A DNA stretch of 64,000 nucleotides from Candidatus Komeilibacteria bacterium RIFOXYD1_FULL_37_29 (GTDB lineage: Bacteria > Patescibacteriota > Patescibacteriia > UBA1558 > GWA2-36-10), in contig MHKS01000005.1 in NCBI GenBank assembly GCA_001818495.1, forward strand, positions 250,038-314,037, written 5' to 3'. Positions 19,429 through 33,114 of the stretch are shown piece by piece (the first letter of the stretch is position 1; each line of letters begins with the position of its first letter). Made by a program: the position numbers and the translations under genes. The notes beneath the pieces are model-generated. The model made no database searches. It was not told the origin of the DNA and saw only the letters and a program-made list of their open reading frames with translations.

Positions 19429-19596
19429 GGAGAGGTAGCAGATCCCGCGTAGCGGGACCCCGCTTTGCGGGGGTGGTTTAGAAATAGTAAGTTGATAATT
19501 TCATTTAGTTTTGGAGAGGTGGCAGCTCCCGCGCAGCGGGACCCCGCTTTGCGGGGGTGGTTTAGAAATAGTAAGTTGATAATTTCATTTAGTTTT
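19429..19596 (+). repeat. Tandem direct duplication (2 x 84 bp) immediately upstream of tRNA-Ser. Each unit begins with the first 8 nt of the tRNA (GGAGAGGT) and contains two GC hairpins.
   Basis: Units 19429-19512 and 19513-19596 are about 93% identical. Hairpins cccgc-gta-gcggg and ccccgc-ttt-gcgggg. Confidence 0.8.
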
Positions 19597-19686
19597 GGAG
19601 AGGTGCTAGAGTGGTTGAATAGGGTGCTCTCGAAAAGCACTAGTCCTGAAAGGGACTCGGGGGTTCAAATCCCTCCCTCTCCGCCA
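19597..19686 (+). tRNA. tRNA-Ser (anticodon CGA), class II with a long variable arm and an encoded CCA.
   Basis: Manual fold: acceptor GGAGAGG/CCTCTCC, D-stem CTA/TAG, anticodon stem GTGCT/AGCAC, loop CTCGAAA, 16-nt variable arm, T-loop TTCAAAT, discriminator G, CCA. Confidence 0.85.
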
Positions 19687-19706
19687 TCCTTCGCTAAAGC
19701 TACGGA

Positions 19707-20021
19707 ATGACTAGCCATATGTTATATTATACTTACATTTTATTAAGCTCAAAATCTCATATTTTTTATTTTGGTTCAACGAATAATTTAAAAAATAGAT
19801 TGGAGCTGCATAATAGCGGCAAGGTAACATCAACTAAATCGCATATACCTTGGAAATTAGTTTGGTATTGTGTATTTGAAACGGAAAAACAGGCAAGAGA
19901 TTTTGAGCTTTATTTAAAAACAGGGTCAGGAAAATCTTTTGCTTATAAAAGACTTATTTCCGTGGCTTTAGAGAAGGATTTCAGGGAAGGGAGAATAGGT
20001 AGTCCGAAGCGGAAGCCTTAG
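19707..20021 (+). CDS. Small standalone GIY-YIG nuclease-domain protein.
   Basis: YTYILLSSKSHIFYFGSTNNLKNRLELHNSG matches the GIY…YIG…R…H/N…E catalytic motif set. 104 aa. Confidence 0.7.
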   Translation: MTSHMLYYTYILLSSKSHIFYFGSTNNLKNRLELHNSGKVTSTKSHIPWKLVWYCVFETEKQARDFELYLKTGSGKSFAYKRLISVALEKDFREGRIGSPKRKP

Positions 20022-20033
20022 CTTTTGCGAAGG

Positions 20034-20051
20034 ATACCTCCCTCTCCGCCA
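20034..20051 (+). repeat. Direct repeat of the tRNA-Ser 3' end (17 of 18 nt identical to 19669-19686), an att-like site.
   Basis: ATACCTCCCTCTCCGCCA versus tRNA ATCCCTCCCTCTCCGCCA. It brackets the GIY-YIG gene. Confidence 0.75.
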
Positions 20052-20190
20052 GATTACCAAGTTTGAACCCAAGCAAAATAAGGGTTTTGTGCTATTGAAA
20101 AGCCGGTGTCCGAATAAGGTGCTGATTTTTTAAAATCCTTATCAAATGAGTAAATTTTTGGTAAAATAGAGTTAATAAGAATAGAATTAT

Positions 20191-22020
20191 ATGTCTAAAA
20201 AAATTGATTACGACAACTGGTCAAAAGATGAGATAATCAAGGAGATTAGGCGAATCAAAGAAACTACATACGGACTTGTGTGGCATCGCGACTTACCTGA
20301 GGAAAAAATTGATATTCTTATAAACCCAGATGCTCGGACTCCAAATGAAATGTTCCCTAACGAAATGGCGGGCAAGCCATTTCCAGTTTTGAAAGAGGCA
20401 AAAACAAAAACAATTGAGACTGATAAAAATAAGCCGACAAATATTTTGATTGAGGGTGATAATTATCATTCTCTTGCCGTTTTGAATTTTACTCATCAAG
20501 AAGCAATTGATTTGATTTACATTGATCCGCCTTACAATACTGGCCACAACGATTTTGTTTACAATGATAAAATTAAAAGCGGTTATGTTGTTAAAGATGA
20601 TCCATTTAGGCATAGTAAATGGATTTCTTTCATGGAAAAAAGGTTAAAACTCGCAAAAAATTTATTGAAATCGTCGGGTGTTATTTTTATTAGTATTGAC
20701 GACAATGAATTTGCTCCATTAAAAATGCTGTGTGACGAGATTTTTGATGAAAGTAATTTCATCTCTATGTTGTCAATTGAAAATAATCCTAAGGGACGGA
20801 AAAACTCCGATTTTATATCTATTTGTAATGATTATTGTCTTATATACGCTAAAGACAAAGGTAAAAGTTATTTTGTTGAAAATATTCCCAAACAAGCTGA
20901 CGACTTAACGATTGATGATAATGGAGACTATGTACACAATAGCGGCAAACGGGTCCTTGTTGGAGAAAATAAATTTAATCCGCTTGTAGAAGATTTTGAA
21001 TCAGCTAAGCATTATAGTGTTTATTACAATCAGACTGATAATAAAATTAAAATAGAGGTGGAAAAAAATATTCACGAGGCAAACAAAGATTTATTAAAAA
21101 ACGGATATAAAAGATACTATTCTTATTTTGGAGACAGATTTGTCTTGAATACTTATACAAAATCAAAAATCATAGAGCTTTTCGAAGATGAGGCTCTCGA
21201 ATTCAAAAATGGGAGTATATATGAAAAAAATTTCAGCACAACAATTAGACTAAAAAGTCTTGTTATCAATAAAAAATATGAGGCAGTAATAAATAATGAA
21301 AAAGCAGAATATCAAATAGATGTTAAAACGACTTCAGCGAAGACTGAATTAAAGGATATTTTCAACACTGACCAAATTCCATTTGATAACCCCAAGAATA
21401 TTGGTTTGATAAAATTATTGGTAACATTATTTGAAAATAAATCAATAACTATTTTAGATTTTTTTGCAGGATCGGGAACGACCGGGCATGCAGTCCTTGG
21501 TCAAAATAAAGAAGATGGAGGAAATCGACAATTTATTCTGTGCACGAATAATGAAAATAATATATGCACTGATATCTGCTATCCCCGTCTTGGAAAAGTT
21601 ATAAAGGGATATAAAAATTCAAGAAATGAAAAAATTGATGGTTTGGGTGGAAACCTGAGATATTTTACTGCTTATGACTTTGTAGAAGCTAAGGAAACAG
21701 ATAGAAACAAAAGAAAACTAGTAAACCAATCAACAGAAATGCTTTGCATTAAGGAAAATGCTTTTGAGCTTGTGCAAGAAGTTGAAGATTATAAAATCTT
21801 CAAGAATCATGATAAATATTTGGGAATTATTTTTCATGAAGATTCTATATCGGACTATGTCAAAGCAATAAAAAAGATAAAAGGACACTTTAATACTTAT
21901 ACATTTTCAATGACGGATGATCCTCACAAAGAGGAATTTACTGATGTTGCGGACAAAGTAACTCTTTGTGCAATTCCAGAAATGATTTTGAAAGTATATC
22001 ATGAGATTTTCAAGGAATAA
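20191..22020 (+). CDS. mod: Type III restriction-modification methyltransferase (Mod), a beta-class N6-adenine/N4-cytosine MTase.
   Basis: DPPY (IDPPYNTG) precedes the FxGxG SAM motif (FFAGSGTTGHAV). The adjacent helicase-type res gene overlaps. Confidence 0.75.
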   Translation: MSKKIDYDNWSKDEIIKEIRRIKETTYGLVWHRDLPEEKIDILINPDARTPNEMFPNEMAGKPFPVLKEAKTKTIETDKNKPTNILIEGDNYHSLAVLNFTHQEAIDLIYIDPPYNTGHNDFVYNDKIKSGYVVKDDPFRHSKWISFMEKRLKLAKNLLKSSGVIFISIDDNEFAPLKMLCDEIFDESNFISMLSIENNPKGRKNSDFISICNDYCLIYAKDKGKSYFVENIPKQADDLTIDDNGDYVHNSGKRVLVGENKFNPLVEDFESAKHYSVYYNQTDNKIKIEVEKNIHEANKDLLKNGYKRYYSYFGDRFVLNTYTKSKIIELFEDEALEFKNGSIYEKNFSTTIRLKSLVINKKYEAVINNEKAEYQIDVKTTSAKTELKDIFNTDQIPFDNPKNIGLIKLLVTLFENKSITILDFFAGSGTTGHAVLGQNKEDGGNRQFILCTNNENNICTDICYPRLGKVIKGYKNSRNEKIDGLGGNLRYFTAYDFVEAKETDRNKRKLVNQSTEMLCIKENAFELVQEVEDYKIFKNHDKYLGIIFHEDSISDYVKAIKKIKGHFNTYTFSMTDDPHKEEFTDVADKVTLCAIPEMILKVYHEIFKE

Positions 22021-24262
22021 TTATATGTCATGGATTAATTTTAAAAATTATCAAGAAACTGCAATCGATGAAATACGCGACAAGATTAATGCCCTGCTCA
22101 AAAAAGAGGGTAATAGACTTTGCGTATTCAAAGCTCCGACTGGTTCGGGGAAAACTTTAATGATGGCGGAATGGATGATGAGGTTTTGTGACCCATATTC
22201 GCGAATTGATGGGAAAACTTTTTCTTTTGTATGGATAGCAGTAAATAAATTACATGATCAAAGCCATGACAGTTTAAAAAAGTTTTATGAGCTCAAAGGA
22301 GCGGGGCTTCGTTGTTCATATTTTCACGAACTTGAGGATAGAAAAATAAAACAGAACGAGATTTTATTTTTGAATTGGGCAAGTATCAATAATGAAGACA
22401 AGATTATTGTTCGCGCGAATGAAAGAGATAATAATCTCTCAACAATAATTGATCGGACCAAAGATGCCAGTCGGACAATTATTTTGATTATCGACGAAAG
22501 CCACCATACCGCAAAAAGTAAAAATTCAAAGGCTTTAATAAAAAATATTGACCCTAAAATTACGATCGAGGTTTCTGCTACACCAGAAATTTTTGATTTT
22601 GATGAGCGGGTAACCATTGATATTGAGGATGTACGAAGCGAGGAAATGATAAAGAAAGAAATTGTAGTGAACCCTGGCTTCAAAAATTACACAGTTGATC
22701 CAAAAAAGAACGATCAAACAGCAGACGAATTAATCTTGAAGTCTGCTTTGCAAAAAAGGATTGATTTGCGAAAAAAATTAGAAAAAGATGGTTCAAATGT
22801 CAATCCCTTATTACTTATTCAATTACCGGATACAAAAAAAGGAGTTCCTGATAAAAAAGAGGAGATTGAAACACTTCTTGCTAAATTTGGCTATACAACA
22901 AAAAATGGAAAGTTGGCTGTCTATCTTTCTGAAAAAGATAACAAAATAAATCTTGCTAATATTGAGAAAAATGAAAACGAAGTGGAGGTAATGATGTTCA
23001 AGCAAGCGATTGCACTTGGTTGGGATTGTCCAAGAGCTACAATTCTTGTGCTTTTCCGTCAATGGAAAGATGAAACGATAACATTCTCAATCCAAACATT
23101 GGGAAGAATCATGCGTATGCCTGAGCAAAAACATTATAAAGATCAAGAGTTGAATATTGCTTATCTTTATACTAGTTTACAAGACATTAATACTCGTATT
23201 TTGAAAGGTGCTTCGTCGGGAATAAAATCTCTTACGAGTTATCGCAATGAGAAATATAAAAATATTGACCTAATTTCATATCACTCAAAACGATTCCGTG
23301 AGGAAACTCGTTTGTCTTCTGATTTTGTGAAAATTTTTATCGAAGCCGCTAAAAAAACAAATTTAAAAGATGTTTCGCTAAAAGTCGGGATTGTGAAAAC
23401 AACAATGATCAAAGATGGACGCGTGGAAAATGCGGATAAAGAAATAACAAAGATTGAAAGTGATACTTTTTCTATACCCAAAACAGAGACGGAGCTGCAA
23501 TATACTTTTGATATGTTTGTGCTTGATAATCTTGATCCGTTTGAACATGAAGCCCGTTCTATAAAACGCATAAACGATTCAATTTATACTTTCTTTGGCG
23601 CACGACGCAAAGAAGATGAATGGCCTAAAATACAAGCCACGATACTTTCGTATGAAAAGAATCGCCAAGCTGTAATTGATGCTATTAATCTAGCAAAAGA
23701 TTTATATAAAACCGAAGTTGGAAAAGGCAAAAAAGAACTGATACAAAATGATGAGCCGTGGAATGTGCCAGAAGCTATTAATTTTGATCCGTCATTTGTA
23801 GAGCAAAATTATAAAAAATCTATAATGCAACCATATTACGCTCGTTCTCGGGATGGAGAAAACGGACGATTGTTTGAGGACAGTGAAATTGAAAATGATT
23901 TTATTAAATACCTAGAAAAAGCACAGAAAGTTGTTTGGTGGTTCAGAAATGGGAAACAAGACGGATCATTTTTTGCTGTCCCGCACATTGAACACGGACA
24001 AGAAAAGCCGTTTTATGTTGATTTTATAGTTATGATGAAAAATGGAACTGTTGGGCTTTTTGATACAAAATCAGGATATACTGCCGAACTAGCAAAATCT
24101 CGCTCTGATGGACTTGTAAAATATATTAATGAGCAGAAAAAGAAAAAAATTACTGGCGGAATTGTGAGATACGAAAAGAAAAGTTGGCTATATTTTACTA
24201 ACAAAGAATATAAATATAATCCGAATGATATAAAGGATTGGGAATTTTTGGATTTGAATTAA
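22001..24262 (+). CDS. res: Type III restriction enzyme Res subunit (SF2 helicase plus C-terminal PD-DxK nuclease).
   Basis: Walker A FKAPTGSGKT, DExH IIDESHH, C-terminal VDFIV…GLFDTK. The real start is probably the ATG near 22025. Confidence 0.75.
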   Translation: MRFSRNNYMSWINFKNYQETAIDEIRDKINALLKKEGNRLCVFKAPTGSGKTLMMAEWMMRFCDPYSRIDGKTFSFVWIAVNKLHDQSHDSLKKFYELKGAGLRCSYFHELEDRKIKQNEILFLNWASINNEDKIIVRANERDNNLSTIIDRTKDASRTIILIIDESHHTAKSKNSKALIKNIDPKITIEVSATPEIFDFDERVTIDIEDVRSEEMIKKEIVVNPGFKNYTVDPKKNDQTADELILKSALQKRIDLRKKLEKDGSNVNPLLLIQLPDTKKGVPDKKEEIETLLAKFGYTTKNGKLAVYLSEKDNKINLANIEKNENEVEVMMFKQAIALGWDCPRATILVLFRQWKDETITFSIQTLGRIMRMPEQKHYKDQELNIAYLYTSLQDINTRILKGASSGIKSLTSYRNEKYKNIDLISYHSKRFREETRLSSDFVKIFIEAAKKTNLKDVSLKVGIVKTTMIKDGRVENADKEITKIESDTFSIPKTETELQYTFDMFVLDNLDPFEHEARSIKRINDSIYTFFGARRKEDEWPKIQATILSYEKNRQAVIDAINLAKDLYKTEVGKGKKELIQNDEPWNVPEAINFDPSFVEQNYKKSIMQPYYARSRDGENGRLFEDSEIENDFIKYLEKAQKVVWWFRNGKQDGSFFAVPHIEHGQEKPFYVDFIVMMKNGTVGLFDTKSGYTAELAKSRSDGLVKYINEQKKKKITGGIVRYEKKSWLYFTNKEYKYNPNDIKDWEFLDLN

Positions 24263-24265
24263 ATT

Positions 24266-25450
24266 ATGGCATTAGAATCAGAAAAATTGGAAGAAAAAAT
24301 AGTTGATAATTATTTTACTGATACTCTATATAGTAGTCGGGAATTTAAGGGTGGAGTAGGTAAATTTTTTACAATAGTATCTCAGGATGAAAATGATATC
24401 CCAAATGTAGTTGATGTTGAGCATTCGTATCCTATACGCAATAAAATAAAGACAACGCTGACATTTATCAAAAAAGAAAACGAAATTACAGCCATTTCCT
24501 TTAAGCGTTTTAAATATTATAAAAAAGAACATTGGGTTGAACAACCAGAAGAACAGATTACTTTTTCATACAGTCTTTTTAAAAAAATTATTGGGTATTT
24601 ACAGTTACTATCAGAATTAAATTTGTCGGCTATTAGTGAGCGAAGAATTGCTTTAGCCGATGACACATTACCGAATATTGACGATGAAACAAAAAAGAAG
24701 ATTAAAACATTGCTTTTACGCAAAGATGGGCAAAAAATTATTGAGGAATTAATAAATAGCGGAATAATTACATCAACCGATATTGTAAATATCGGGTATC
24801 GAAAAAAACAACTTGATGTTTTTGAGAAGCTCCTGACACAACCCGATTATTTTGCAACCTATATAACTGAAAGTAAAATTACAGATACTCGTCATGAGTC
24901 TGTTTGGCAACATTTCTTCCATTCTAATGATTGGATTTTTGGATATGGACTAGATTATCGCTTTCTTGGCATCCTGCAAAAAGAAGCTCATATTTCAAAT
25001 ACAGACGTCGCAGGAAAAGGGGCTGTTATAAATGATTTTCTACTCGGGTGCAATAAATTCACCGTTTTGGTTGAATTAAAAAAACACGACACACCATTAT
25101 TTGGAAAAGACAAAAACCGGTCAAACTCTTGGACACTTTCAGATGATTTAATATCTGGTCTATCTCAAATATTAGAGCAAAAAGCTAGTTGGCAGGTTTC
25201 GGCCGAGACAAATGCAAGTGGAAATTTTGACGATAAGGGTAATTTGATAAAACAAAAAACTATCGATCCAAAAAGTATCTTAGTTATCGGATCAACAAAG
25301 CAATTTGATGGTGATGATAAAGAAAATCAAATTAAAGCAAAAACCTTTGAACTTTTTAGACGAGATTCAAGAAATATAGAAATTCTTACTTATGACGAAC
25401 TGTATGAGAGAGCGAAGTTTATTGTTGAACATAAACAGAAAGACAACTAG
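24266..25450 (+). CDS. Protein with a C-terminal PD-(D/E)xK nuclease-like core, possibly Shedu/DUF4263-like. Third gene of the R-M operon.
   Basis: E…VINDFLL…VLVELKK fits an E-D-ExK arrangement. Start lies 4 nt after the res stop. Confidence 0.45.
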   Translation: MALESEKLEEKIVDNYFTDTLYSSREFKGGVGKFFTIVSQDENDIPNVVDVEHSYPIRNKIKTTLTFIKKENEITAISFKRFKYYKKEHWVEQPEEQITFSYSLFKKIIGYLQLLSELNLSAISERRIALADDTLPNIDDETKKKIKTLLLRKDGQKIIEELINSGIITSTDIVNIGYRKKQLDVFEKLLTQPDYFATYITESKITDTRHESVWQHFFHSNDWIFGYGLDYRFLGILQKEAHISNTDVAGKGAVINDFLLGCNKFTVLVELKKHDTPLFGKDKNRSNSWTLSDDLISGLSQILEQKASWQVSAETNASGNFDDKGNLIKQKTIDPKSILVIGSTKQFDGDDKENQIKAKTFELFRRDSRNIEILTYDELYERAKFIVEHKQKDN

Positions 25451-25793
25451 GTTTAAATAGAATAATCCACCTCATTTTTGCTCTTATCTGATTTTAGCTT
25501 CGGTGTCTCAAACCATTCTGGATGAACCTTGAACATAGCCCTTAATTCGCGTATACTTTTATCAATATCCTTAAATTTGAACCACTTTTTTGGTTCAAAC
25601 TTCGGGACATCGCCACCGCCACTCGATTCGCATTTTGCTTCGCAAAAAGCTCACTCGTGATCTACGGTGCTAAAGCACCTTCGACCATTCTAATTCTAGA
25701 ATCGAGTGTATTGAGCGAGCGTAGCGAGTCGAAAGGCACGCGCTATCGTGCTAGCATAAGTGTATTAAAAAATTTCTATATAGTTATTAAAAT

Positions 25794-26387
25794 ATGGATC
25801 AACAAACAATCAATACATACAACAGGATGTCACAAGAGTATGATGATGAAACAGCTGATTTTTGGGAGCGATTTCCTCGAACATTTCTTGATAAATTTAT
25901 TAAGCTATCCGGTAATAAAATACTTGATGTTGGGAGCGGACCAGGTAGAGATGGTTTGATACTTCAACAGGCCGGTAAAAATGTTGTCTGTGTGGATGCT
26001 TCTGCAGCAATGGTGAAATTGTCTTCAGACAGAGGTTTAAACTCTATAGTAGCCAGTTTCGACAATTTACCATTTGAAAATAATTCATTTGACGGCGTAT
26101 GGTCATATACTGCTCTTTTACATATTCCCAAAAAATCTATCGATACCCCTCTTCAAGAGATTTTTCGTATTATCAAACCTTCAGGTATTTTTGCTCTTGG
26201 TCTGATTGAAGGGGACACAGAAGGATACAAAGAAAGCTCTGAAGTGACTATGCCTCGTTGGTTTAGTTTCTATCAGAAAGACGAAGTTGAAAATTTATGC
26301 CAAAAGCACGGATTTGAGCTGGTTTACTTTGAGACTTTTAAACCAGGGTCCAAGCCCTATTTGAATTTTATTTTTCGAAAAATATAA
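25794..26387 (+). CDS. Class I SAM-dependent methyltransferase (small, 197 aa).
   Basis: ILDVGSGPGRDG motif I, post-I acidic residue, DGVWSYTALLH motif. Confidence 0.7.
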   Translation: MDQQTINTYNRMSQEYDDETADFWERFPRTFLDKFIKLSGNKILDVGSGPGRDGLILQQAGKNVVCVDASAAMVKLSSDRGLNSIVASFDNLPFENNSFDGVWSYTALLHIPKKSIDTPLQEIFRIIKPSGIFALGLIEGDTEGYKESSEVTMPRWFSFYQKDEVENLCQKHGFELVYFETFKPGSKPYLNFIFRKI

Positions 26388-26417
26388 TACTACTAGAACA
26401 TTTTTATCTATCTCAAT

Positions 26418-26665
26418 TTTCACTGTCTTTTCAGGCAGTTTTTTGGTATAATCAAAGCATTAATTAATAAAAATATTATGATTGACGAAGAAATAAAGCA
26501 AATTATTCAGGAAAATAAGGACACTTTGGCTAATATTGATAAAAGGATTGGTCGGATTGAGAAAAATTTTATTTGGAGTTCAATTTTTGGTTTTATAAAG
26601 ATTGTTATTATTGTAGCACCGATTGTTTTTGGTATTATTTATTTTACGCCATTTTTGAAAGATTT
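26418..26665 (+). repeat. Left copy of an approximately 248-bp direct repeat (promoter plus the 5' portion of a small membrane-protein gene).
   Basis: About 95% identical to 33401-33648. Confidence 0.85.
26444..26452 (+). promoter_or_regulatory. Extended -10 promoter element (TGgTATAAT) for the small membrane-protein gene. An identical copy lies at 33427-33435.
   Basis: TGGTATAAT 26 nt upstream of the ATG, duplicated inside the direct repeat. Confidence 0.55.
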
Positions 26666-26690
26666 AAATAAATTGGGTATTATTACATAA
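26478..26690 (+). CDS. Small coiled-coil/TM protein, a truncated paralog of 33461..33811.
   Basis: The first 60 aa are nearly identical to the 33461 copy, then the sequence diverges and ends. Confidence 0.55.
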   Translation: MIDEEIKQIIQENKDTLANIDKRIGRIEKNFIWSSIFGFIKIVIIVAPIVFGIIYFTPFLKDLNKLGIIT

Positions 26691-26707
26691 TTAAGAAATG
26701 GTAGTAT

Positions 26708-28426
26708 ATGAAAAAGTCAAAAGTCATATTAGGGATTACTGCCTTTAATCATGATTCTTCGGCGTGCTTAATTTATCAAGGTAGAGTAATTGCATTTTGT
26801 GAGGAGGAAAGATTCAATGGCATAAAACATACCGGAGATTTTCCGATAAAATCAATTTTATTTTGTTTAGAAAAAGCTGGTTTGTCATTAAATGATGTGA
26901 CTGATGTAGCTTTTTATTTTAATATTAAAAAATGTTTATTGAGTTATATAAAGAACAATAATCCACTCTATTATATTATTCATCCATCTTTATTTAAGAG
27001 GAAAAGATTTTATTATGAAATTATTTGGTTATTTAGTTTTATAAACAAAATTAATTCAATTAAAAAACTCCTTAATAATTATAAGATAAAGATTACTTAT
27101 GTAGATCATCATATGGCGCACGCTTGGTATGGGTATTTTTCTTCAAATTTTAAAAATTGCACGGTAGTTTCTAATGACAGCGTAGGCGAGAGTGTGAGTA
27201 GTTTAGCCGTAAAGATACAGAGAGAAGATAAAAAAATTATTTTTGGTAAGACATTCAGTCAAACAGACCCTCACTCTATTGGGTATTTGTATGGTGCTAT
27301 AACTGAATTTTTAGGATTCAAAAGAGGTCAAGACGAAGGAAAGGTTATGGCTATGGCGGCTTTAGGGAAAGATAAATATGTAAAATATTTTGATGACTTG
27401 ATTAGATATTTACCTAATGGGGAATTTAGAATAAGTAAGGAGTTGATTTCCTTACGTAATTTTCAGCCAAAATCACAAAGATTAAGCAATGATTTTTTAA
27501 AAAAATTTGGATATTATCGTCAACCCCAAGAACCATTTATCCAAAAGCATTATGATATTGCTTATGCAATACAAGGGGTAACGGAAAAAATTTTATATCA
27601 CCAATTAAAATATATTAATGATGATAATATAGTCATTACTGGTGGTATTGCTCAAAATAGTGTAGCCAACGGGAAACTCAACAATTTTTTTTATAAAAGA
27701 AATATATTTATTCCTCCGATTCCTAATGATGCCGGGTGTGGTATTGGCGCGGCGCTTTCTTTATATTATAAGTATTATGAAGATTTACCAGAGTTTGTGG
27801 ATACTGCGTTTTTAGGCCCAGAATTTTCTGATCATAAAATCATTAAAACATTAGAAAATAATAAAATAAATTTTAAAATTATAAAAAATCAGACGGAATT
27901 CATTATTAATGAGCTTTTGAAAAATAAGATTATCGCTATATATAGAAATGAGATGGAGTGTGGTCCTAGGGCATTAGGTAATAGGAGTATAATAGCCAAT
28001 CCAATTGATCCGGCGATGAAGAATTACATCAATGAAAAAATAAAACACCGTGAATTTTTTCAGCCATACGGCGGGTTGATTATTGATAAAAATGTTAAAG
28101 AAGTATTTGATTATAAGAATAAAAATATTTCCGGACCATATATGTCTTTTGTTTATCCAATTAAAGATAAATGGTTAAAAATGTTTCCATCTTTGGTTCA
28201 TTTTGATAAAACTTCTAGAATTCAAATAATAAAGAAGGAACAAAATTTTTTATATAGTCTCTTGGAAGAATTTTATAAAAAAACAGGTGTCCCCGTAATT
28301 ATAAATACTTCCCTTAATTTAAGAGGGCAGCCTATGGCAAGAAGCCATCAAGATGCTTTAAACACATTTTATAATTCGGGGATTCATTATATTTTATTTA
28401 ATAACAGTATTCTAGTTTCAAAATGA
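26708..28426 (+). CDS. Carbamoyltransferase, NodU/CmcH/NovN family (O-carbamoyltransferase).
   Basis: N-terminal ILGITAFNHDSSACL…CEEERFNGIKH and DHHMAHAW, the hallmarks of the NodU/CmcH family. 572 aa. Confidence 0.75.
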   Translation: MKKSKVILGITAFNHDSSACLIYQGRVIAFCEEERFNGIKHTGDFPIKSILFCLEKAGLSLNDVTDVAFYFNIKKCLLSYIKNNNPLYYIIHPSLFKRKRFYYEIIWLFSFINKINSIKKLLNNYKIKITYVDHHMAHAWYGYFSSNFKNCTVVSNDSVGESVSSLAVKIQREDKKIIFGKTFSQTDPHSIGYLYGAITEFLGFKRGQDEGKVMAMAALGKDKYVKYFDDLIRYLPNGEFRISKELISLRNFQPKSQRLSNDFLKKFGYYRQPQEPFIQKHYDIAYAIQGVTEKILYHQLKYINDDNIVITGGIAQNSVANGKLNNFFYKRNIFIPPIPNDAGCGIGAALSLYYKYYEDLPEFVDTAFLGPEFSDHKIIKTLENNKINFKIIKNQTEFIINELLKNKIIAIYRNEMECGPRALGNRSIIANPIDPAMKNYINEKIKHREFFQPYGGLIIDKNVKEVFDYKNKNISGPYMSFVYPIKDKWLKMFPSLVHFDKTSRIQIIKKEQNFLYSLLEEFYKKTGVPVIINTSLNLRGQPMARSHQDALNTFYNSGIHYILFNNSILVSK

Positions 28427-29247
28427 TTAAAGATTTTCAAAAGATAGAGTTTTTAAAATCACTTTACAGTGATAAAGACTTAATATCGTTTCGTGGCAAT
28501 TTTTTAAAAAATAATTCCAACCGTAAATTCTCATTAAGATCTTTTATTATTAAACTTTTGCCGATGCTAAAGGATAAAAAAATATTAGACATTGGTTGCG
28601 GAGACGGGTCATTCCTCAATAAATTACATACGGTATATCCTCAAAATAAATATTTTGGTTTGGATGTAGTAGATAATGCTAAATGCCATAAATTGAAATT
28701 TCTTGACTACAAAATTTATGATGGTAAATCCAGGGTTTATTATACGGAAAAATTTGATGTGATATTTTGTATGCACACTGTTTATCATATCGAAGATTTA
28801 TTCACTTTTTTTACAACGATGAAAGACTATTTAAAGCCCCATGGCATTATTATCATTACTACGAAGTCTAAATTGACTTTTCCTAAAATAGAATCAATCT
28901 TTTTAAAGATTGTCGGTAAGCTTGACTTAAAAAAATATTTAAAAATTAGCAAACACAGAGAGGAATCAAAATTTTGTTTGGAGAACGGATTAAACAGATT
29001 AAAAAAACACTTCGCTAGGCGGTCATTTAGTATAAATGAGTATGTTTTAGAAACGCAGGTTTTTGTTAATGACAAAAAAGATCTTTTGAAATATGTTTTT
29101 TCTACAAATAGATATAATATTTTGAAAGATACTTTAAACAAAAAAATTGTTGAAAAATATACAAAACTTTGGTTTGAAGAAATTGATAAAGATCAGATAT
29201 TCATTGATAAATATACGGAGGCTGTTTATTTAATAAAAAAATTATGA
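28423..29247 (+). CDS. Class I SAM-dependent methyltransferase.
   Basis: ILDIGCGDGSF motif I, D at the end of beta2, FDVIFCMHTVYH. Overlaps its neighbours and lies in the operon. Confidence 0.7.
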   Translation: MIKDFQKIEFLKSLYSDKDLISFRGNFLKNNSNRKFSLRSFIIKLLPMLKDKKILDIGCGDGSFLNKLHTVYPQNKYFGLDVVDNAKCHKLKFLDYKIYDGKSRVYYTEKFDVIFCMHTVYHIEDLFTFFTTMKDYLKPHGIIIITTKSKLTFPKIESIFLKIVGKLDLKKYLKISKHREESKFCLENGLNRLKKHFARRSFSINEYVLETQVFVNDKKDLLKYVFSTNRYNILKDTLNKKIVEKYTKLWFEEIDKDQIFIDKYTEAVYLIKKL

Positions 29248-30311
29248 AAATAGGTTATAGTTGCTGGGGATTTTTGGGTAACGGAATAAAGGATACACCG
29301 GATGGCGGGAGGAGTCACCGGTTGACTTTATTGAAAGAATTAATCCGTCAAGGAGTTGAAATAGTAATGTTGCAAAAGAATAGAGACCTCATTGAAGGCA
29401 ATCAAAGTTTTTCACGAAAGAATTTAATATTTAGTGGTGAGTTACCGGAAATAGATGCTCTATTTGTAGAATATAGATGGAAGATAGTAGGAAGGAATTA
29501 TAAGGTGAGAAAAAATAATCCAGCCTATACTCCGGATTTCGATAGACAGAGTGAATTAATTAATTTTTATAATAATAGAAATATTCCTATTATTATTTGG
29601 GATAAAGATCAGAAACTTGGTAAGAATGAAATAAAAGGCATTAAAAATTTGATTGTATTTGAACCTGCTTTAAAGCCAAGGTTTAATAGAAAAAGTTTAT
29701 TGTTTCCGATGGACAATCATAGAACAAAAATTGTCCTCAAATTGATAGGTAAGTATAAAAAAAATATTAAGAGCTCCAAGTTGTGTTACATTGGAAATCA
29801 ATATGAGAGAGATGGTAGTTTTAAAGAGTTTATTAATAAGCCAGCCAGTATGCTCGATACCAAAACACCAGTATTTGGTAATTGGAACAAATATCCAGAA
29901 AAGTATAAGCAAAATATGCAAAAATTTTCCAATGTTGAATTTAAAGGTAGGGTGCAGTTTAATAAAGTTAATAATATTTATAAAAAATCTTTTTCTACAG
30001 TTCTTATCGCGCCACGGAGATATTATATCACGGGTCATTTTACACAAAGATTATTTGAGGCAATGTGGGGCTTATGCATTCCTTTTACCCCGCAGCAATA
30101 TCATGGATGGCAGGGTTTAATAATAAAAGATTTTATAATTAGATCTGGCAAAGATTTAATAAATAAGATAAAAAAATTAGAAACAACGCCCGATTCAGAT
30201 ATAAGGAGAATGTTTGATAGACAGTTTGAGAAACTTAATTTATTTAATGCCAGTAAACAAGCCAGTATAATTATAAACGAAATCAATAATCATAATGGTA
30301 GACTCGGGTAA
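29244..30311 (+). CDS. GT-B glycosyltransferase resembling phage T4 DNA beta-glucosyltransferase (BGT), a candidate hydroxymethyl-pyrimidine DNA glycosyltransferase.
   Basis: 355 aa versus BGT at 351 aa. An MKI…N-terminus, YIGNQYERDGSFKEFI against BGT YGGSFRSGQRESKMVEFL, and FTQRLFEAMWGLCIPF against BGT ITLRVWETMASDAVMLI. The comparison is from memory and needs confirmation. Confidence 0.5.
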   Translation: MKIGYSCWGFLGNGIKDTPDGGRSHRLTLLKELIRQGVEIVMLQKNRDLIEGNQSFSRKNLIFSGELPEIDALFVEYRWKIVGRNYKVRKNNPAYTPDFDRQSELINFYNNRNIPIIIWDKDQKLGKNEIKGIKNLIVFEPALKPRFNRKSLLFPMDNHRTKIVLKLIGKYKKNIKSSKLCYIGNQYERDGSFKEFINKPASMLDTKTPVFGNWNKYPEKYKQNMQKFSNVEFKGRVQFNKVNNIYKKSFSTVLIAPRRYYITGHFTQRLFEAMWGLCIPFTPQQYHGWQGLIIKDFIIRSGKDLINKIKKLETTPDSDIRRMFDRQFEKLNLFNASKQASIIINEINNHNGRLG

Positions 30312-31074
30312 TAAAAATAAATCTTTAGAAATTGTAATTGATTCTAAACACTATATTAAAAAAAGATATTCTGATATCCAACGTTTTTTTTGTGAATTAA
30401 AATATCTTAAATATTTTAAAGATGAAGATATCAATGTTCCTTTTATATATAAATTTGATAAAATCCAAAAAACAATAATAATAGATAAAATAAAGGGGAA
30501 AATCGGCGATTCATTAAATAATAGAGACACAAAACTATGCATTGATGTGCTTGTCAAAATAATTTTTATTTTTGGTTTGGAAAAGAAAAATAATAATGAA
30601 ATTGATAGGTATATTTCAAAAGTCAGGTCAAATATAATATGGTGGTGTGAAAATAATAATTATATAGTAGAAAAAGAAAAATTAAATATTTTACTTCAAA
30701 AGTTAAGAAAAGTGTGTTATATATCTTTATTCAAAGATGCCAAACCATCTAATTGGATTTTTCAAAAAGATAAAATATACGCAATAGACTTTGATTATGT
30801 AAAAAAATCATTTTTTTTAGCAGATTTAGCACAACTTTTAAGTTATATTTCATTAAGGAAAAAAATAAGTTATATTTTCTTTGTAAATTATTATCTAAAG
30901 CAAATATTCCCAAAAATGAAGGATTATGATAAATTTTATATACCTTTTAAATTAGCGCTTGTTAATTCCAACATTGCTTCTGAACTTCACAGAGAGAATT
31001 TAGGAGCCTATGTAAAAAGGGGTTTTGCCAAACAAAACAGGTTTATTTTGAGTGAATTTAAGATAATATTATAA
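30295..31074 (+). CDS. Small protein-kinase-like fold phosphotransferase (Kdo-kinase/APH-like).
   Basis: Catalytic-loop-like FKDAKPSNWIF (D-x-K-P-x-N) and IYAIDFDY (DFG-equivalent). 259 aa. Confidence 0.5.
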   Translation: MVDSGNKNKSLEIVIDSKHYIKKRYSDIQRFFCELKYLKYFKDEDINVPFIYKFDKIQKTIIIDKIKGKIGDSLNNRDTKLCIDVLVKIIFIFGLEKKNNNEIDRYISKVRSNIIWWCENNNYIVEKEKLNILLQKLRKVCYISLFKDAKPSNWIFQKDKIYAIDFDYVKKSFFLADLAQLLSYISLRKKISYIFFVNYYLKQIFPKMKDYDKFYIPFKLALVNSNIASELHRENLGAYVKRGFAKQNRFILSEFKIIL

Positions 31075-31955
31075 TGTCAATATCAATAACCGCCAAATCA
31101 GCTAATGAAGCATTCATTAAAATAGCTGATAAATTGTATAATAATCCGGAATATGTTTCTAGTCCTCGAAGCTGGGAAACAAGGGAGTTATTAGGGGCTT
31201 TTATTGTTATCAACAATCCCTATGATCGTTTTATAAATAATGTTCATAGGAAGATTTCTTTAAAGTATCTTATTGGTGAATGGTTATGGTATGAGCGAGG
31301 ATCCAATTCTTTAAATGAAATTAATTATTATGCAAAATTTTGGAGCAGTATTTCGGATGATAAAATAACTGCCAATTCAGCTTATGGTCATAGAATTTTA
31401 GGGATCAATAAGTTCGTGATTATTAATCAATGGAAGTGGGCCAAACGGCAAATAATAAAAGATAAGGAAACAAGGAGAGCCATCATTTTTATTGGATTGC
31501 CAAGTGATATGAAAAACGAAACGAAAGATTTTCCTTGCACTATGTCACTCCAGTTTTTAATAAGAAATAATGAGTTACATTTAATTTGCAATATGAGGAG
31601 CAATGATTTAGTATTGGGTTTTACTTATGATGTAGCTACCTTTACTTTATATCAAGAAAAAATGTTGTTGGAGTTGAAAAAATATTATCCAAAATTAAAG
31701 ATAGGTAAATATTTTCATATGGTAGGCAGTTTACACGTATATAAGAAAAACTATGAGATGATAAAAAAAGTGATAAATGATCAGGACAATAATTTGAAAA
31801 TTACCATGCCTCGCATGGGTGATTTAAAAGAAATAAAAAAACTCCAGTATAACGAGAGTATTATAAGAGAAAATAAAAATAAAAAGTTTAAAAAAATTGA
31901 AGATAGATTCTGTATCTGGTGTCAGAATATTTTATTAAATAAAATTAAATACTAA
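31074..31955 (+). CDS. Thymidylate-synthase-family pyrimidine hydroxymethylase, predicted dCMP hydroxymethylase (T4 gp42-like).
   Basis: ThyA-fold motifs EWLWYERG, catalytic Cys in FPCTMSLQF and MRSNDLVLGFTYDVATF. This aligns gap-free to E. coli ThyA QRSCDVFLGLPFNIASY with Asp at the Asn177 position, which is the cytosine-specificity switch. Confidence 0.6.
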   Translation: MSISITAKSANEAFIKIADKLYNNPEYVSSPRSWETRELLGAFIVINNPYDRFINNVHRKISLKYLIGEWLWYERGSNSLNEINYYAKFWSSISDDKITANSAYGHRILGINKFVIINQWKWAKRQIIKDKETRRAIIFIGLPSDMKNETKDFPCTMSLQFLIRNNELHLICNMRSNDLVLGFTYDVATFTLYQEKMLLELKKYYPKLKIGKYFHMVGSLHVYKKNYEMIKKVINDQDNNLKITMPRMGDLKEIKKLQYNESIIRENKNKKFKKIEDRFCIWCQNILLNKIKY

Positions 31956-31956
31956 A

Positions 31957-32628
31957 ATGAAAGGCATAATTATAGACGGAGTTGTTTCTTCTGGTAAAAC
32001 GTCTATCTTAAAACATCTTCATCGTCTGATTTCAGAACAAAACCCTACTTCAACCAAGTTTTTTATTAGTGAACACTATACTGAGAGAATGTTGGAGCAT
32101 TTGAAAGATAAAGGTGAATTAGACGGTAGCCATATAAAAGCCCACGTTGATCAGTTAATCCATACTTTAGCTTCTTTTCAGTCTATGTTGGATAATTCTA
32201 AGTTTCGTGATAACCCGAAAGGAGCAGATTTGTTTGTTACTTTAGAAAGATTTATTCTAACCCATTTGTCCTCAGTGGACATAGGAGATAAATATAGTCT
32301 TGATGAAGTCAAAGCTCATTTTGAAATTTTAAACAAGCTAGGAGTAAAACAAGTAGCTTTAATAATTCCCGAATCAAGACTAAAAGAAAATATCATGTCG
32401 ACTCTGCAATATCGAAATGACGCCTGGTTGGATTATTTGTATTCTAGGGGTGGAGAAAAAGAAATTATAGAATATTATATCAATTGGCAGAATAATTTTT
32501 TAGAGTATATCAACAAATTTAAAGATATAATAGATACCTTAGTCATCGAAGTAAAAGATCAAGACTATCTTCAATATAGTAATACTATTTTTAATAGTTG
32601 TATTAAATCAGATATTCTCTCAAAATAA
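31957..32628 (+). CDS. P-loop nucleotide kinase (dNMP-kinase-like, possibly T4 gp1-like, or a 5-hm-pyrimidine kinase).
   Basis: Walker A GVVSSGKTS similar to T4 gp1 GVKRSGKDT. No Tmk DRY/TxEPGG motifs. 223 aa. Confidence 0.45.
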   Translation: MKGIIIDGVVSSGKTSILKHLHRLISEQNPTSTKFFISEHYTERMLEHLKDKGELDGSHIKAHVDQLIHTLASFQSMLDNSKFRDNPKGADLFVTLERFILTHLSSVDIGDKYSLDEVKAHFEILNKLGVKQVALIIPESRLKENIMSTLQYRNDAWLDYLYSRGGEKEIIEYYINWQNNFLEYINKFKDIIDTLVIEVKDQDYLQYSNTIFNSCIKSDILSK

Positions 32629-33114
32629 ATGTTTTTTAATTTTATGTTTTTTATACTTTACCCCGGCTAAATCAAAGAGTTTTTTAGAAACGATAAAATT
32701 ATTCGCATCTTTGTCTGATCTATCATCTTGATAGATTATATTTTTTATGCCGCTTTGGATAATAATTTTTGCACACTCATTGCAGGGGAAGAGTAAACAG
32801 TAAAGTTTTGCATTTTCGGCTGATTGATTAGTATTTAAAATGGCATTTACTTCAGCGTGAACAACATACGGATATTTTGTATTTAAGATATTTTTTTTGT
32901 TATGCCCGTAATTATTACTCCAAGAAAAATGCCCTTCCTTAATACCTCTAGGCCAACCGTTGTAGCCAACTCCTAAAACAACATTATTTTTATCAACCAC
33001 GACAGCTCCGGTTTGAGTTGATGGGTCTTTTGATCTCTGAGCTATAACTTGAGCCATTAGCATAAATGTTTCATCCCACGATAAATAGTTTTTTCTAGCT
33101 TTTATATTATCCAT
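32620..33114 (-). CDS. dCMP deaminase (deoxycytidylate deaminase, zinc-dependent).
   Basis: HAEVNAI and PCNECAKII zinc-binding motifs. 164 aa. Confidence 0.85.
   Translation of the reverse strand: MDNIKARKNYLSWDETFMLMAQVIAQRSKDPSTQTGAVVVDKNNVVLGVGYNGWPRGIKEGHFSWSNNYGHNKKNILNTKYPYVVHAEVNAILNTNQSAENAKLYCLLFPCNECAKIIIQSGIKNIIYQDDRSDKDANNFIVSKKLFDLAGVKYKKHKIKKHLF

Follow-up and report, generated by a model that had tools for sequence, protein, structure and literature searches.

A 64,000-nucleotide (nt) stretch of the genome of Candidatus Komeilibacteria bacterium RIFOXYD1_FULL_37_29 (the window; positions are counted from its first nucleotide) carries, directly behind a tRNA-Ser gene, a unit of about 350 bp (19685–20036) whose sole gene encodes a GIY-YIG nuclease. 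That the unit is a site-specific mobile mini-element is very likely. We propose further, with a probability of roughly 0.6, that it belongs to an old and widespread family of selfish mini-elements of the Candidate Phyla Radiation (CPR, or Patescibacteria) that insert after nucleotide C74 of tRNA genes with a 14-bp target duplication. An original prediction, made from the window's sequence, had offered a very small mobile unit with the nuclease as its sole cargo as one of two readings, and the same architecture is indeed found at many tRNAs in about 80 genomes.

Duplication of the tRNA 3' end

The target gene is intact and encodes its own CCA, with the discriminator base G73 at 19683 and C74 at 19684 (Table 1). 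Its 3' end recurs beyond the nuclease gene (19669–19686 and 20034–20051), and the 17 identities in 18 nt counted in the original prediction hold. The repeat contains an exact 15-nt core, CCTCCCTCTCCGCCA, which occurs exactly twice in the 64 kb (19672–19686 and 20037–20051; 0.07 occurrences expected), and no third copy of the tRNA end was found in the window. The upstream copy is the functional tRNA end, and the downstream, orphan copy runs straight into the flank that follows CCA in empty sites. Comparison across the family shows that the duplication that matters for the mechanism comprises tRNA positions 61/62–74, 13 nt here and 14 nt in most loci. The additional match of CA between the two copies is a coincidence, since the left end of this element variant begins with CA and the original gene encoded CCA.

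The element is bounded by an inverted repeat, which had been predicted as 15 bp and extends to 20 nt with 18 matches (19686–19705 against 20016–20035; none expected by chance). The repeat is thus real, but its right arm is merely the 3' part (20016–20036) of a 41-nt palindrome at the right end of the element. The predicted gene also needs a small correction: the open reading frame (ORF) can be read from an in-frame upstream ATG (19707–20021, 104 aa), but homologues and the deposited annotation use the second ATG at 19719, which gives a GIY-YIG protein of 100 aa.

Recurrence across genomes

A protein search returned more than 540 homologues with 72–88% identity in many CPR phyla, among them Komeili-, Moran-, Jorgensen-, Wildermuth-, Portnoy-, Kaiser- and Levybacteria. 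The loci were scanned in one genome per species; 130 were returned and 80 kept, mostly from CPR, or 81 with the window (loci are numbered L001 onwards). The family follows a single plan, consisting of a tRNA gene on the same strand, a palindromic left end that starts from G73–C74, the nuclease ORF with an internal inverted copy of the left end, a palindromic right end laid over the stop codon, and a copy of the local tRNA positions 61–74. A same-strand tRNA gene ends 25–112 nt upstream of the ORF in 55 of the 81 loci, and in another 10 the contig stops inside the tRNA. The targets are tRNA-Gln (23 loci), tRNA-Ser (17) and tRNA-Asn (9), as well as Gly, Tyr, Trp and Leu tRNAs, and the discriminator base is G73 in 50 of about 54 usable cases.

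The last 13 nt of the tRNA up to C74 recur just downstream of the ORF and right end without mismatch at 39 of 70 loci and with one mismatch at 10, as compared with one exact match in 679 cross-locus controls. The gene would have appeared to be an ancestral resident had it stood beside tRNAs that lack a duplicated end; instead, 49 of the 70 loci carry the copy with at most one mismatch in 13. Counted back from C74, the exact run in the 39 exact loci is 14 nt long in 31, 13 nt in five (including the window) and 15 nt in three. These run lengths mark the duplicated piece as tRNA positions 61–74, that is, the 3' strands of the T-stem and the acceptor stem together with G73 and C74. The two stem strands make up a single unbroken strand of the acceptor/T-arm helix, to which the two bases are added. 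The downstream copy retains CCA where the gene encoded it (L009, L047 and the window), and the upstream copy continues with the first bases of the element, AA, TA or CA. The copies therefore diverge after C74, which sets the insertion point there, with some element variants supplying the 'CA'.

Unusual tRNA ends accompany the element at a few loci. At L020, L021, L002/L003/L015 and L070 the left end has in front of it only a tRNA 3' fragment (T loop onward) or a tRNA-like end that is unrelated, and L021 holds the tRNA-Leu 3' end three times within 300 nt, one of them inverted. At L096 (about 520–560) the tRNA-Ser 3' end from the T loop (..CCGA followed by ATCCCTCCCTCTCCGCCA) is joined to unrelated upstream DNA in place of the tRNA body, which may reflect another kind of insertion or rearrangement in the T loop. 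LOOT RNA (RF03000) scored above its gathering threshold near two elements (L024, 2170–2290, and L046, 4111–4237, both on the minus strand) and is probably unrelated. The non-CPR labels of some records (Gammaproteobacteria, Scalindua, Bacteroidetes and Weeksellaceae, at L007, L011, L017, L052, L062, L073 and others) look unreliable; the protein of L011 ('Bacteroidetes') is 99% identical to that of L013 ('Parcubacteria').

Palindromic ends

The left end (LE) is an imperfect 29-nt palindrome whose outermost pairs involve G73–C74 of the tRNA. In the family it follows directly after C74 in the form (N)ATCCTTCGCTAAAGCTACGGAAT(N')GC; in the window the outermost pair is imperfect (GAC, not GGC). Across 41 distinct sequences 92.9% of the cells are paired and 7 of the 11 pairs show compensatory changes, a degree of pairing reached by none of 500 shuffles and by none of the slid registers. 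The outer pairs covary with target bases 73–75: the base after C74 changes together with its partner (C–G, A–T or T–A), and at loci with discriminator A the LE partner changes from GC to GT.

An inverted copy of LE, named IRi, lies inside the ORF and is written family-wide into the codons S-V-A-L-A-K-D. Over 71 loci, LE and the reverse complement of IRi show 3.8 differences in 22 positions when both come from one locus and 5.9 when they come from different loci, and synonymous variants of IRi are mirrored in the non-coding LE. The right end (RE) has the family form GGTAGTCCGAAGC...GCG(T/A)AGGATA and holds the last codons of the ORF, G-S-P-K...stop. Among 47 distinct RE sequences 93% of the cells are paired and 7 of the 11 pairs are compensatory; these sequences were picked by their outer arms, so that only the three inner pairs, with 39 compensatory cells, are independent of the selection. 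The RE of the window folds as DNA with −6.6 kcal/mol. With LE, IRi and RE, each element carries three copies of one imperfect palindrome of 22–30 bp. A long-range pairing between LE and RE was considered as the key feature and rejected, as variants of LE and RE are independent of each other and IRi is the best and consistent inverted partner of LE.

Mismatches of the G.T and A.C kinds number 7 and 11 in LE, 5 and 10 in RE, and 50 and 50 in LE:IRi, with no bias toward G.T, and the LE and RE hairpins are thermodynamically weak, with a stability no better than that of shuffled sequences. The lack of a G.T excess and the weak hairpins point to recognition of the ends as DNA or by a protein. We infer that the symmetry is kept at the DNA level, as a protein-binding site or a protein-stabilised cruciform, and not as an RNA structure. 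Hairpins acting in a joint tRNA–mRNA transcript were rejected on the same two observations. A scan of the region against Rfam (E ≤ 1) returned the intact tRNA only, with no ribozyme or other family.

Some loci carry additional sequences at or near the ends. The same palindromic mini-insert of about 42 nt (TCCGTCGCTACTACGTAGCTATGGAATAGC..AGTATAGCTAC) is nested in LE, some 20–110 nt before the ORF, in the three unrelated loci L027, L028 and L035, which suggests a still smaller parasite of the element ends. Solo left ends after the downstream repeat, and extra RE 3' arms or whole REs in tandem, are present at L050 (2318–2354), at L013 (2882–2901) and at the right ends of L003, L015, L025, L056, L057 and L079. 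Such copies look as if insertion, excision or recombination had left its traces repeatedly at one site. At L054 (1–210) a unit of about 30 nt (gaatggcttgccacttcgaagtcatacgta) is repeated three times in tandem between LE and the ORF.

The GIY-YIG nuclease

The protein matches the Pfam GIY-YIG family PF01541 with 60.9 bits (cut-off 22.6, E = 1.5e-16) and is 100% identical to a protein of Ca. Komeilibacteria RIFOXYC1_FULL_37_11. In an alignment of 30 homologues the catalytic residues Tyr8/Tyr10, Tyr21, Gly23, Arg31, His35 and Glu60/Glu67 are invariant and Asn36 nearly so (at least 90%). A profile search of solved structures placed the UPF0213 proteins BH0048 and EF2693 first (1zg2, E = 2.9e-6, and 1ywl), followed by SLX1 entries. 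The AlphaFold model has a pLDDT of 87, and its top 11 Foldseek matches comprise the Slx1 nuclease domain (7cq2, 6sei), UPF0213 BH0048 and the plant protein At-HIGLE, with a probability of 1.0 for Slx1 and At-HIGLE; UvrC lies far behind (E > 0.8). The predicted fold thus places the protein with nuclease domains of the Slx1/UPF0213 type rather than the UvrC or I-TevI type.

The layout of the protein is simple, with one nuclease domain, one helix and a basic tail. IRi and RE encode the additional C-terminal helix and the tail. A DNA-binding domain of the I-TevI/Seg type is lacking, and NCBIfam gave no match to the protein, including the group I intron endonuclease model TIGR01453; the description of the gene as homing-endonuclease-like in the original prediction does not fit such a bare domain. 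The dN/dS ratio (nonsynonymous to synonymous divergence) is 0.10–0.16, with dS saturated for most pairs, which indicates purifying selection. Saturated dS together with low dN/dS implies that the family is old and the nuclease has been kept functional. A recent horizontal sweep as the source of the 75–88% protein identity across phyla was rejected on the same values, and the identity is attributed to constraint, not recency.

Empty site and adjacent island

Removal of the element and one repeat predicts the junction ATCCCTCCCTCTCCGCCA joined to GATTACC. This junction is present in 19 metagenome contigs, so that the empty site whose search had been proposed at the outset exists. At L094, L082, L084 and L087 the tRNA-Ser is followed directly by the same stretch of about 125 nt that forms the downstream flank of the element in the window. 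This flank is a conserved module of its own. In unrelated contigs (L081–L099) it abuts the CCA of a wide range of tRNA-Ser genes, before variable cargo, and it resembles the left terminus of a family of islands linked to tRNA-Ser. In L009 the order is tRNA-Ser, element, repeat and module (2823–2905).

Behind the module the window continues into a low-GC island of defence and nucleotide-modification genes (Table 1), which also holds three methyltransferases, a carbamoyltransferase, a thymidylate-synthase-like gene and a dCMP deaminase. No recombinase or integrase domain was found in the element or the island, and the window holds no att-like repeat on the right side of the island and no further copy of the left module. 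A third tRNA-end copy or a second left module was considered as the attR of the island and rejected, both being absent from the window. Since the module abuts the CCA of tRNA-Ser elsewhere and the element here sits between tRNA and module, the GIY-YIG unit has inserted between this tRNA and an island that is a separate entity. The second reading in the original prediction, in which the unit forms the left edge of a larger island reaching to about 33.7 kb, is not supported: the island is real but has its own left-end module, and there is no third copy of the tRNA end.

Related elements at tRNA 5' ends

A second type of GIY-YIG element lies just upstream of tRNA genes (L009, 2085–2410; L016, 2100–2419; L077, L088, L092/L099, L084 and L026). 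Its ORF of about 80 aa is 40–50% identical to that of the 3'-end family and is preceded by GC-rich hairpins. The orphan copy consists of the first 10–12 nt of the tRNA plus 1–7 nt of unique upstream flank, with duplications of 13–17 nt (17 nt in L009). Because they include unique flank, these duplications must be made at insertion.

The window itself has two tandem 84-nt units immediately upstream of the tRNA-Ser gene. The hairpins of these units are GC-rich (CCCGCGTAGCGGG and CCCCGCTTTGCGGGG) and match those of L088 in inverted orientation. The units are probably ORF-less relics of the 5'-end element type, inserted twice in tandem.

Table 1. Features of the element and its surroundings in the 64,000-nt window
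Feature	Position	Strand	Basis or remarks
Two tandem 84-nt units, 96% identical	19429–19596	+	Each with the tRNA-Ser 5' end GGAGAGGT, two hairpins and 36 nt of upstream flank
tRNA-Ser(CGA), intact, target gene	19597–19686	+	ARAGORN; Rfam tRNA, 52.1 bits, E = 6e-10
Upstream copy of the duplicated target (T-stem 3' strand, acceptor-stem 3' strand, G73, C74)	19672–19684	+	Exact repeat with 20037–20049
Left-end palindrome LE	19683–19711	+	GC-N-ATCCTTCGC-TAAA-GCTACGGA(A)T-N'-GC; covariation
GIY-YIG nuclease gene, 100 aa	19719–20021	+	Pfam PF01541; start sites of homologues
Internal inverted LE copy IRi	19958–19979	+	Inside the ORF, codons S-V-A-L-E-K-D
Right-end palindrome RE	19998–20038	+	GGTAGTCCGAAGC...GCGAAGGATACC; 41 nt; over codons G-S-P-K...stop; enlarged loop here
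Downstream orphan copy of the tRNA 3' end	20037–20051	+	Target duplication 20037–20049 plus the gene's original CA of CCA
tRNA-Ser-adjacent module, outside the element	20052–20180	+	GATTACCAAGTTTGAACC..AAAATAAGGGTTTT, terminator-like hairpin, promoter-like TTATCAAATGAG..TGGTAAAAT
Low-GC (27–34%) defence and nucleotide-modification island	20191–33114		Type III restriction-modification mod 20191–22020, res 22001–24262; Shedu SduA 24266–25450

Evidence on mobility

The similarity of the proteins does not track the identity of the tRNA: in 24 of 31 cases the nearest protein neighbour sits at a different tRNA type. L064 and L069 are two copies in one metagenome-assembled genome, at two tRNA-Gln genes; they are 86% identical and reciprocal nearest relatives, each with its own matching repeat. 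L067 (1–420) is a pseudogene with a stop at codon 5 that has an intact LE, an intact RE and a 16-nt repeat, in the same metagenome-assembled genome as the intact L016. Contig breaks at the element are frequent. The solo ends, the tandem extra RE arms, the 42-nt palindromic insert nested in LE, the variety of tRNAs occupied and the existence of empty sites likewise speak for mobility. Despite saturated dS the orphan repeat agrees with the local tRNA, which requires ongoing re-insertion, homing or conversion. Carriage by phages was rejected, as a search of IMG/VR with the LE motif gave no match, a result that also counts toward slow movement.

Proposed mechanism and alternative explanations

The cutter, the cut sites and the joining of the DNA are described here as we infer them. 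The element would enter in a fixed orientation directly after C74, mostly in tRNAs with discriminator G73. The Slx1-like nuclease would act on the palindromic ends and on the T-arm/acceptor region of the tRNA gene, with nicks at 60/61 and 74/75 on opposite strands, some 14 bp from each other, and synthesis and ligation by the host would complete the insertion and thereby create the duplication. As the duplicated stretch reaches exactly to the tRNA end, the upstream copy keeps the tRNA gene whole and the downstream copy is orphaned. Judged as a DNA transposon, the element has inverted end copies and a duplication of fixed length; a DDE, HUH, serine or tyrosine recombinase or Cas1 transposase was not found. 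It is possible, though we would sooner bet against it, that the family represents a new class of DNA transposon, in which the only protein would be a Slx1-like nuclease of about 100 aa that reads the palindromic ends as cruciforms or hairpins and the tRNA acceptor/T-arm, nicks 14 bp apart and leaves the rest to host repair, while the target duplication by itself restores the essential gene, with a sister lineage acting in mirror image at tRNA 5' ends.

Several observations weigh against the proposal of an old selfish family with its own target duplication. Among the loci whose upstream sequence is long enough, 16 have a mere tRNA 3' fragment in front of LE and no intact tRNA; introns that could hide these tRNAs from ARAGORN were rejected, as Rfam found neither a tRNA nor a group I intron there. 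In L053 and L002/3/15 the downstream copy derives from another tRNA. Copy number, for which only loci were counted, is low, mostly one per genome, and the identical protein P0100 stands in the same context on at least 24 contigs from a widely sampled Levybacteria population; identical proteins in different contexts, considered as proof of recent jumps, were accordingly rejected, since every contig read shows P0100 in a single context. Relatives fall partly into groups by host clade, and dS between elements is mostly saturated; together these imply that mobility is slow and much of the inheritance vertical. To our knowledge GIY-YIG enzymes are hydrolytic with no known strand transfer, and we know of no precedent for a lone 100-aa nuclease as a 'transposase'. 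The known cuts of GIY-YIG enzymes leave 2-nt 3' overhangs, not 14-nt staggers (PMC2330249).

The element could instead be a homing cassette with portable homology arms, whose nuclease breaks an empty tRNA gene in or near the T loop or the 3' end so that repair copies the occupied allele. The whole tRNA would serve as the left arm and the 14-nt copy as the right arm, allowing homing to the same tRNA in any genome whatever its flanks; the duplication would be inherited with the element and the palindromes would serve regulation or self-protection. Such a cassette would account for one copy per genome and a sporadic distribution like that of homing endonuclease genes, for the occupation of one tRNA family per host clade (Ser isoacceptors in Shapirobacteria/Collierbacteria, Gln-TTG in one Moranbacteria group), and for the lasting identity of the downstream copy to the tRNA despite saturated dS. 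Downstream copies from a different but similar tRNA (L053) are what co-conversion predicts, and the GIY-YIG enzyme SegB targets the T-arm/CCA end of many tRNA genes and drives homing (PMC2330249). Empty alleles exist, but the gene is flanked by a duplication of 13–15 nt. Homing would need one additional illegitimate event per tRNA target, of which there are at least 10, and leaves the covariation of three inverted palindromic copies within the element unexplained, while 14 nt is very short for recombinational repair and the protein lacks the DNA-binding domain typical of homing GIY-YIG enzymes. The sister elements at 5' ends duplicate unique, non-tRNA flank, which a carried arm cannot do. On balance we consider homing, the main rival, unlikely. 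We give still less credence to a domesticated, resident tRNA-linked gene that no longer moves and serves in tRNA processing, expression control or attB blocking. Strong purifying selection, the stable context in the Levybacteria population and the partial clustering by host clade agree with it, and in both copies the insertion comes between the T arm and what lies downstream, presumably enough to disrupt a typical attB. A resident gene is nevertheless difficult to reconcile with the patchy distribution, with the many different tRNAs occupied and the existence of empty sites, or with paralogues at different tRNAs of one genome and a pseudogene copy in decay; no host function suggests itself for the target-matching duplication, and the palindromes lack an RNA-type (G.U) signature.

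Integrases usually leave a duplicated tRNA 3' end behind when they insert, and the low-GC defence island begins right after the downstream copy. The original prediction had accordingly called the repeats a classic attL/attR pair, which would stem from a tyrosine or serine recombinase that was supplied in trans or has disappeared, with either the mini-cassette or the whole 20–33.7 kb island as the integrated unit. This origin is very improbable: neither the element nor the island contains an integrase, the left module of the island abuts tRNA-Ser without the element in other genomes, and a third tRNA-end copy is lacking throughout the 64 kb. Moreover, 80 genomes from many phyla have the 350-bp unit together with a duplication of its own, at a variety of tRNAs; the nuclease is always the one gene conserved, and the duplication keeps to 13–15 nt (61–74) whatever the tRNA. 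The arrangement can also be read, formally, as an insertion at 60/61, so that the unit would be an intervening sequence (a T-loop intron, or a permuted or split tRNA) with the true 3' end in the downstream copy and 365 nt removed from the RNA. CPR tRNA genes often contain group I introns (PMC13011429), which counts in favour of such a reading, but a complete, well-scoring tRNA precedes the element, the region yielded no ribozyme or other Rfam family, and mismatches in LE/IRi and the hairpins have no wobble bias; we find an intervening sequence scarcely credible. The selfish mini-element with a target duplication made at insertion is the reading we prefer.

Relation to known systems

One of the closest parallels is T4 SegB, a free-standing GIY-YIG homing endonuclease in a tRNA cluster, which recognises GGTTCRANTCC, a conserved T-arm motif of many tRNA genes (Asn, Gln, Ser, Leu, Gly, Tyr and others), and cuts just after CCA (PMC2330249). 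Like the element, it is a GIY-YIG gene among tRNA genes and behaves selfishly, and its cut after CCA uses the same landmark at almost the same position as the insertion after C74. SegB differs in being larger, with a DNA-binding part, and in making double-strand breaks with 2-nt overhangs and spreading by homologous repair between phages; it has neither terminal palindromes nor a duplicated tRNA end, whereas the protein of the element is a bare domain of about 100 aa. Casposons have terminal inverted repeats and a 14–15-bp target duplication in the T-psi-C part of the tRNA gene 3' end (tRNA-Pro, 15 bp) (PMC5137440). They measure 8–20 kb, encode a Cas1 integrase and PolB, and their duplication overlaps the tRNA by 5 bp only (PMC5137440), in contrast to the 350 bp, the single 100-aa nuclease ORF and the duplication wholly inside the tRNA seen here. 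Islands and prophages that integrate into tRNA genes by tyrosine integrases likewise enter at the 3' end, restoring a complete tRNA and leaving a direct repeat of its end on the far side, but they carry a replacement end (attP) and an integrase, whereas the element has no recombinase and its repeat is fixed at 61–74.

Slx1 and the UPF0213 proteins (YhbQ, BH0048) share the catalytic core, and their branched or hairpin DNA substrates would fit the palindromic ends of the element. Slx1 has a RING domain and works with Slx4 in repair; the protein of the element has the extra helix and basic tail. The IS200/IS605 and REP/RAYT systems are likewise small, with imperfect palindromic ends that are read as structure and with element bases that pair with the target, comparable to the GC of LE with G73–C74, and the RAYT gene, too, is flanked by inverted REP hairpins. 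These systems use HUH Y1 transposases with covalent intermediates, make no target duplication and do not target tRNA genes. The landmark and the geometry thus have precedent in SegB and casposons, but their combination in the element has none. A search of open-access papers and bioRxiv, with subscription journals mostly uncovered, retrieved no description of GIY-YIG elements with palindromic ends and a tRNA-end duplication and no functional link of UPF0213 proteins to tRNA genes; within this literature, the statement in the original prediction that a GIY-YIG mini-cassette at a tRNA had not been described holds.

Biological implications

If confirmed, the family would add a strategy to those known for mobility, in which a 350-bp element with a bare nuclease invades a gene that is essential and universally conserved, without loss of its function. 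The invaded tRNA gene would go on working, since the duplicated target coincides exactly with the 3' strand of the acceptor/T-arm helix. Confirmation would also mean that the family has converged on the T-psi-C landmark used by SegB, casposons and integrases, and a very small nuclease with a predictable tRNA-adjacent insertion site could interest biotechnology. We know of no function assigned to bacterial UPF0213 proteins and of no reported link between them and tRNA genes, terminal palindromes or target duplications. The element would give the UPF0213/YhbQ family its first concrete biological context, with LE, RE and tRNA-gene ends as candidate substrates. It would also explain many genes annotated as 'GIY-YIG nuclease family protein' beside CPR tRNAs, and some of the assembly breaks at tRNAs. 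If the two element types do form a new class of transposon, the termini of tRNA genes would be a dedicated habitat for nuclease-only mobile elements in CPR bacteria.

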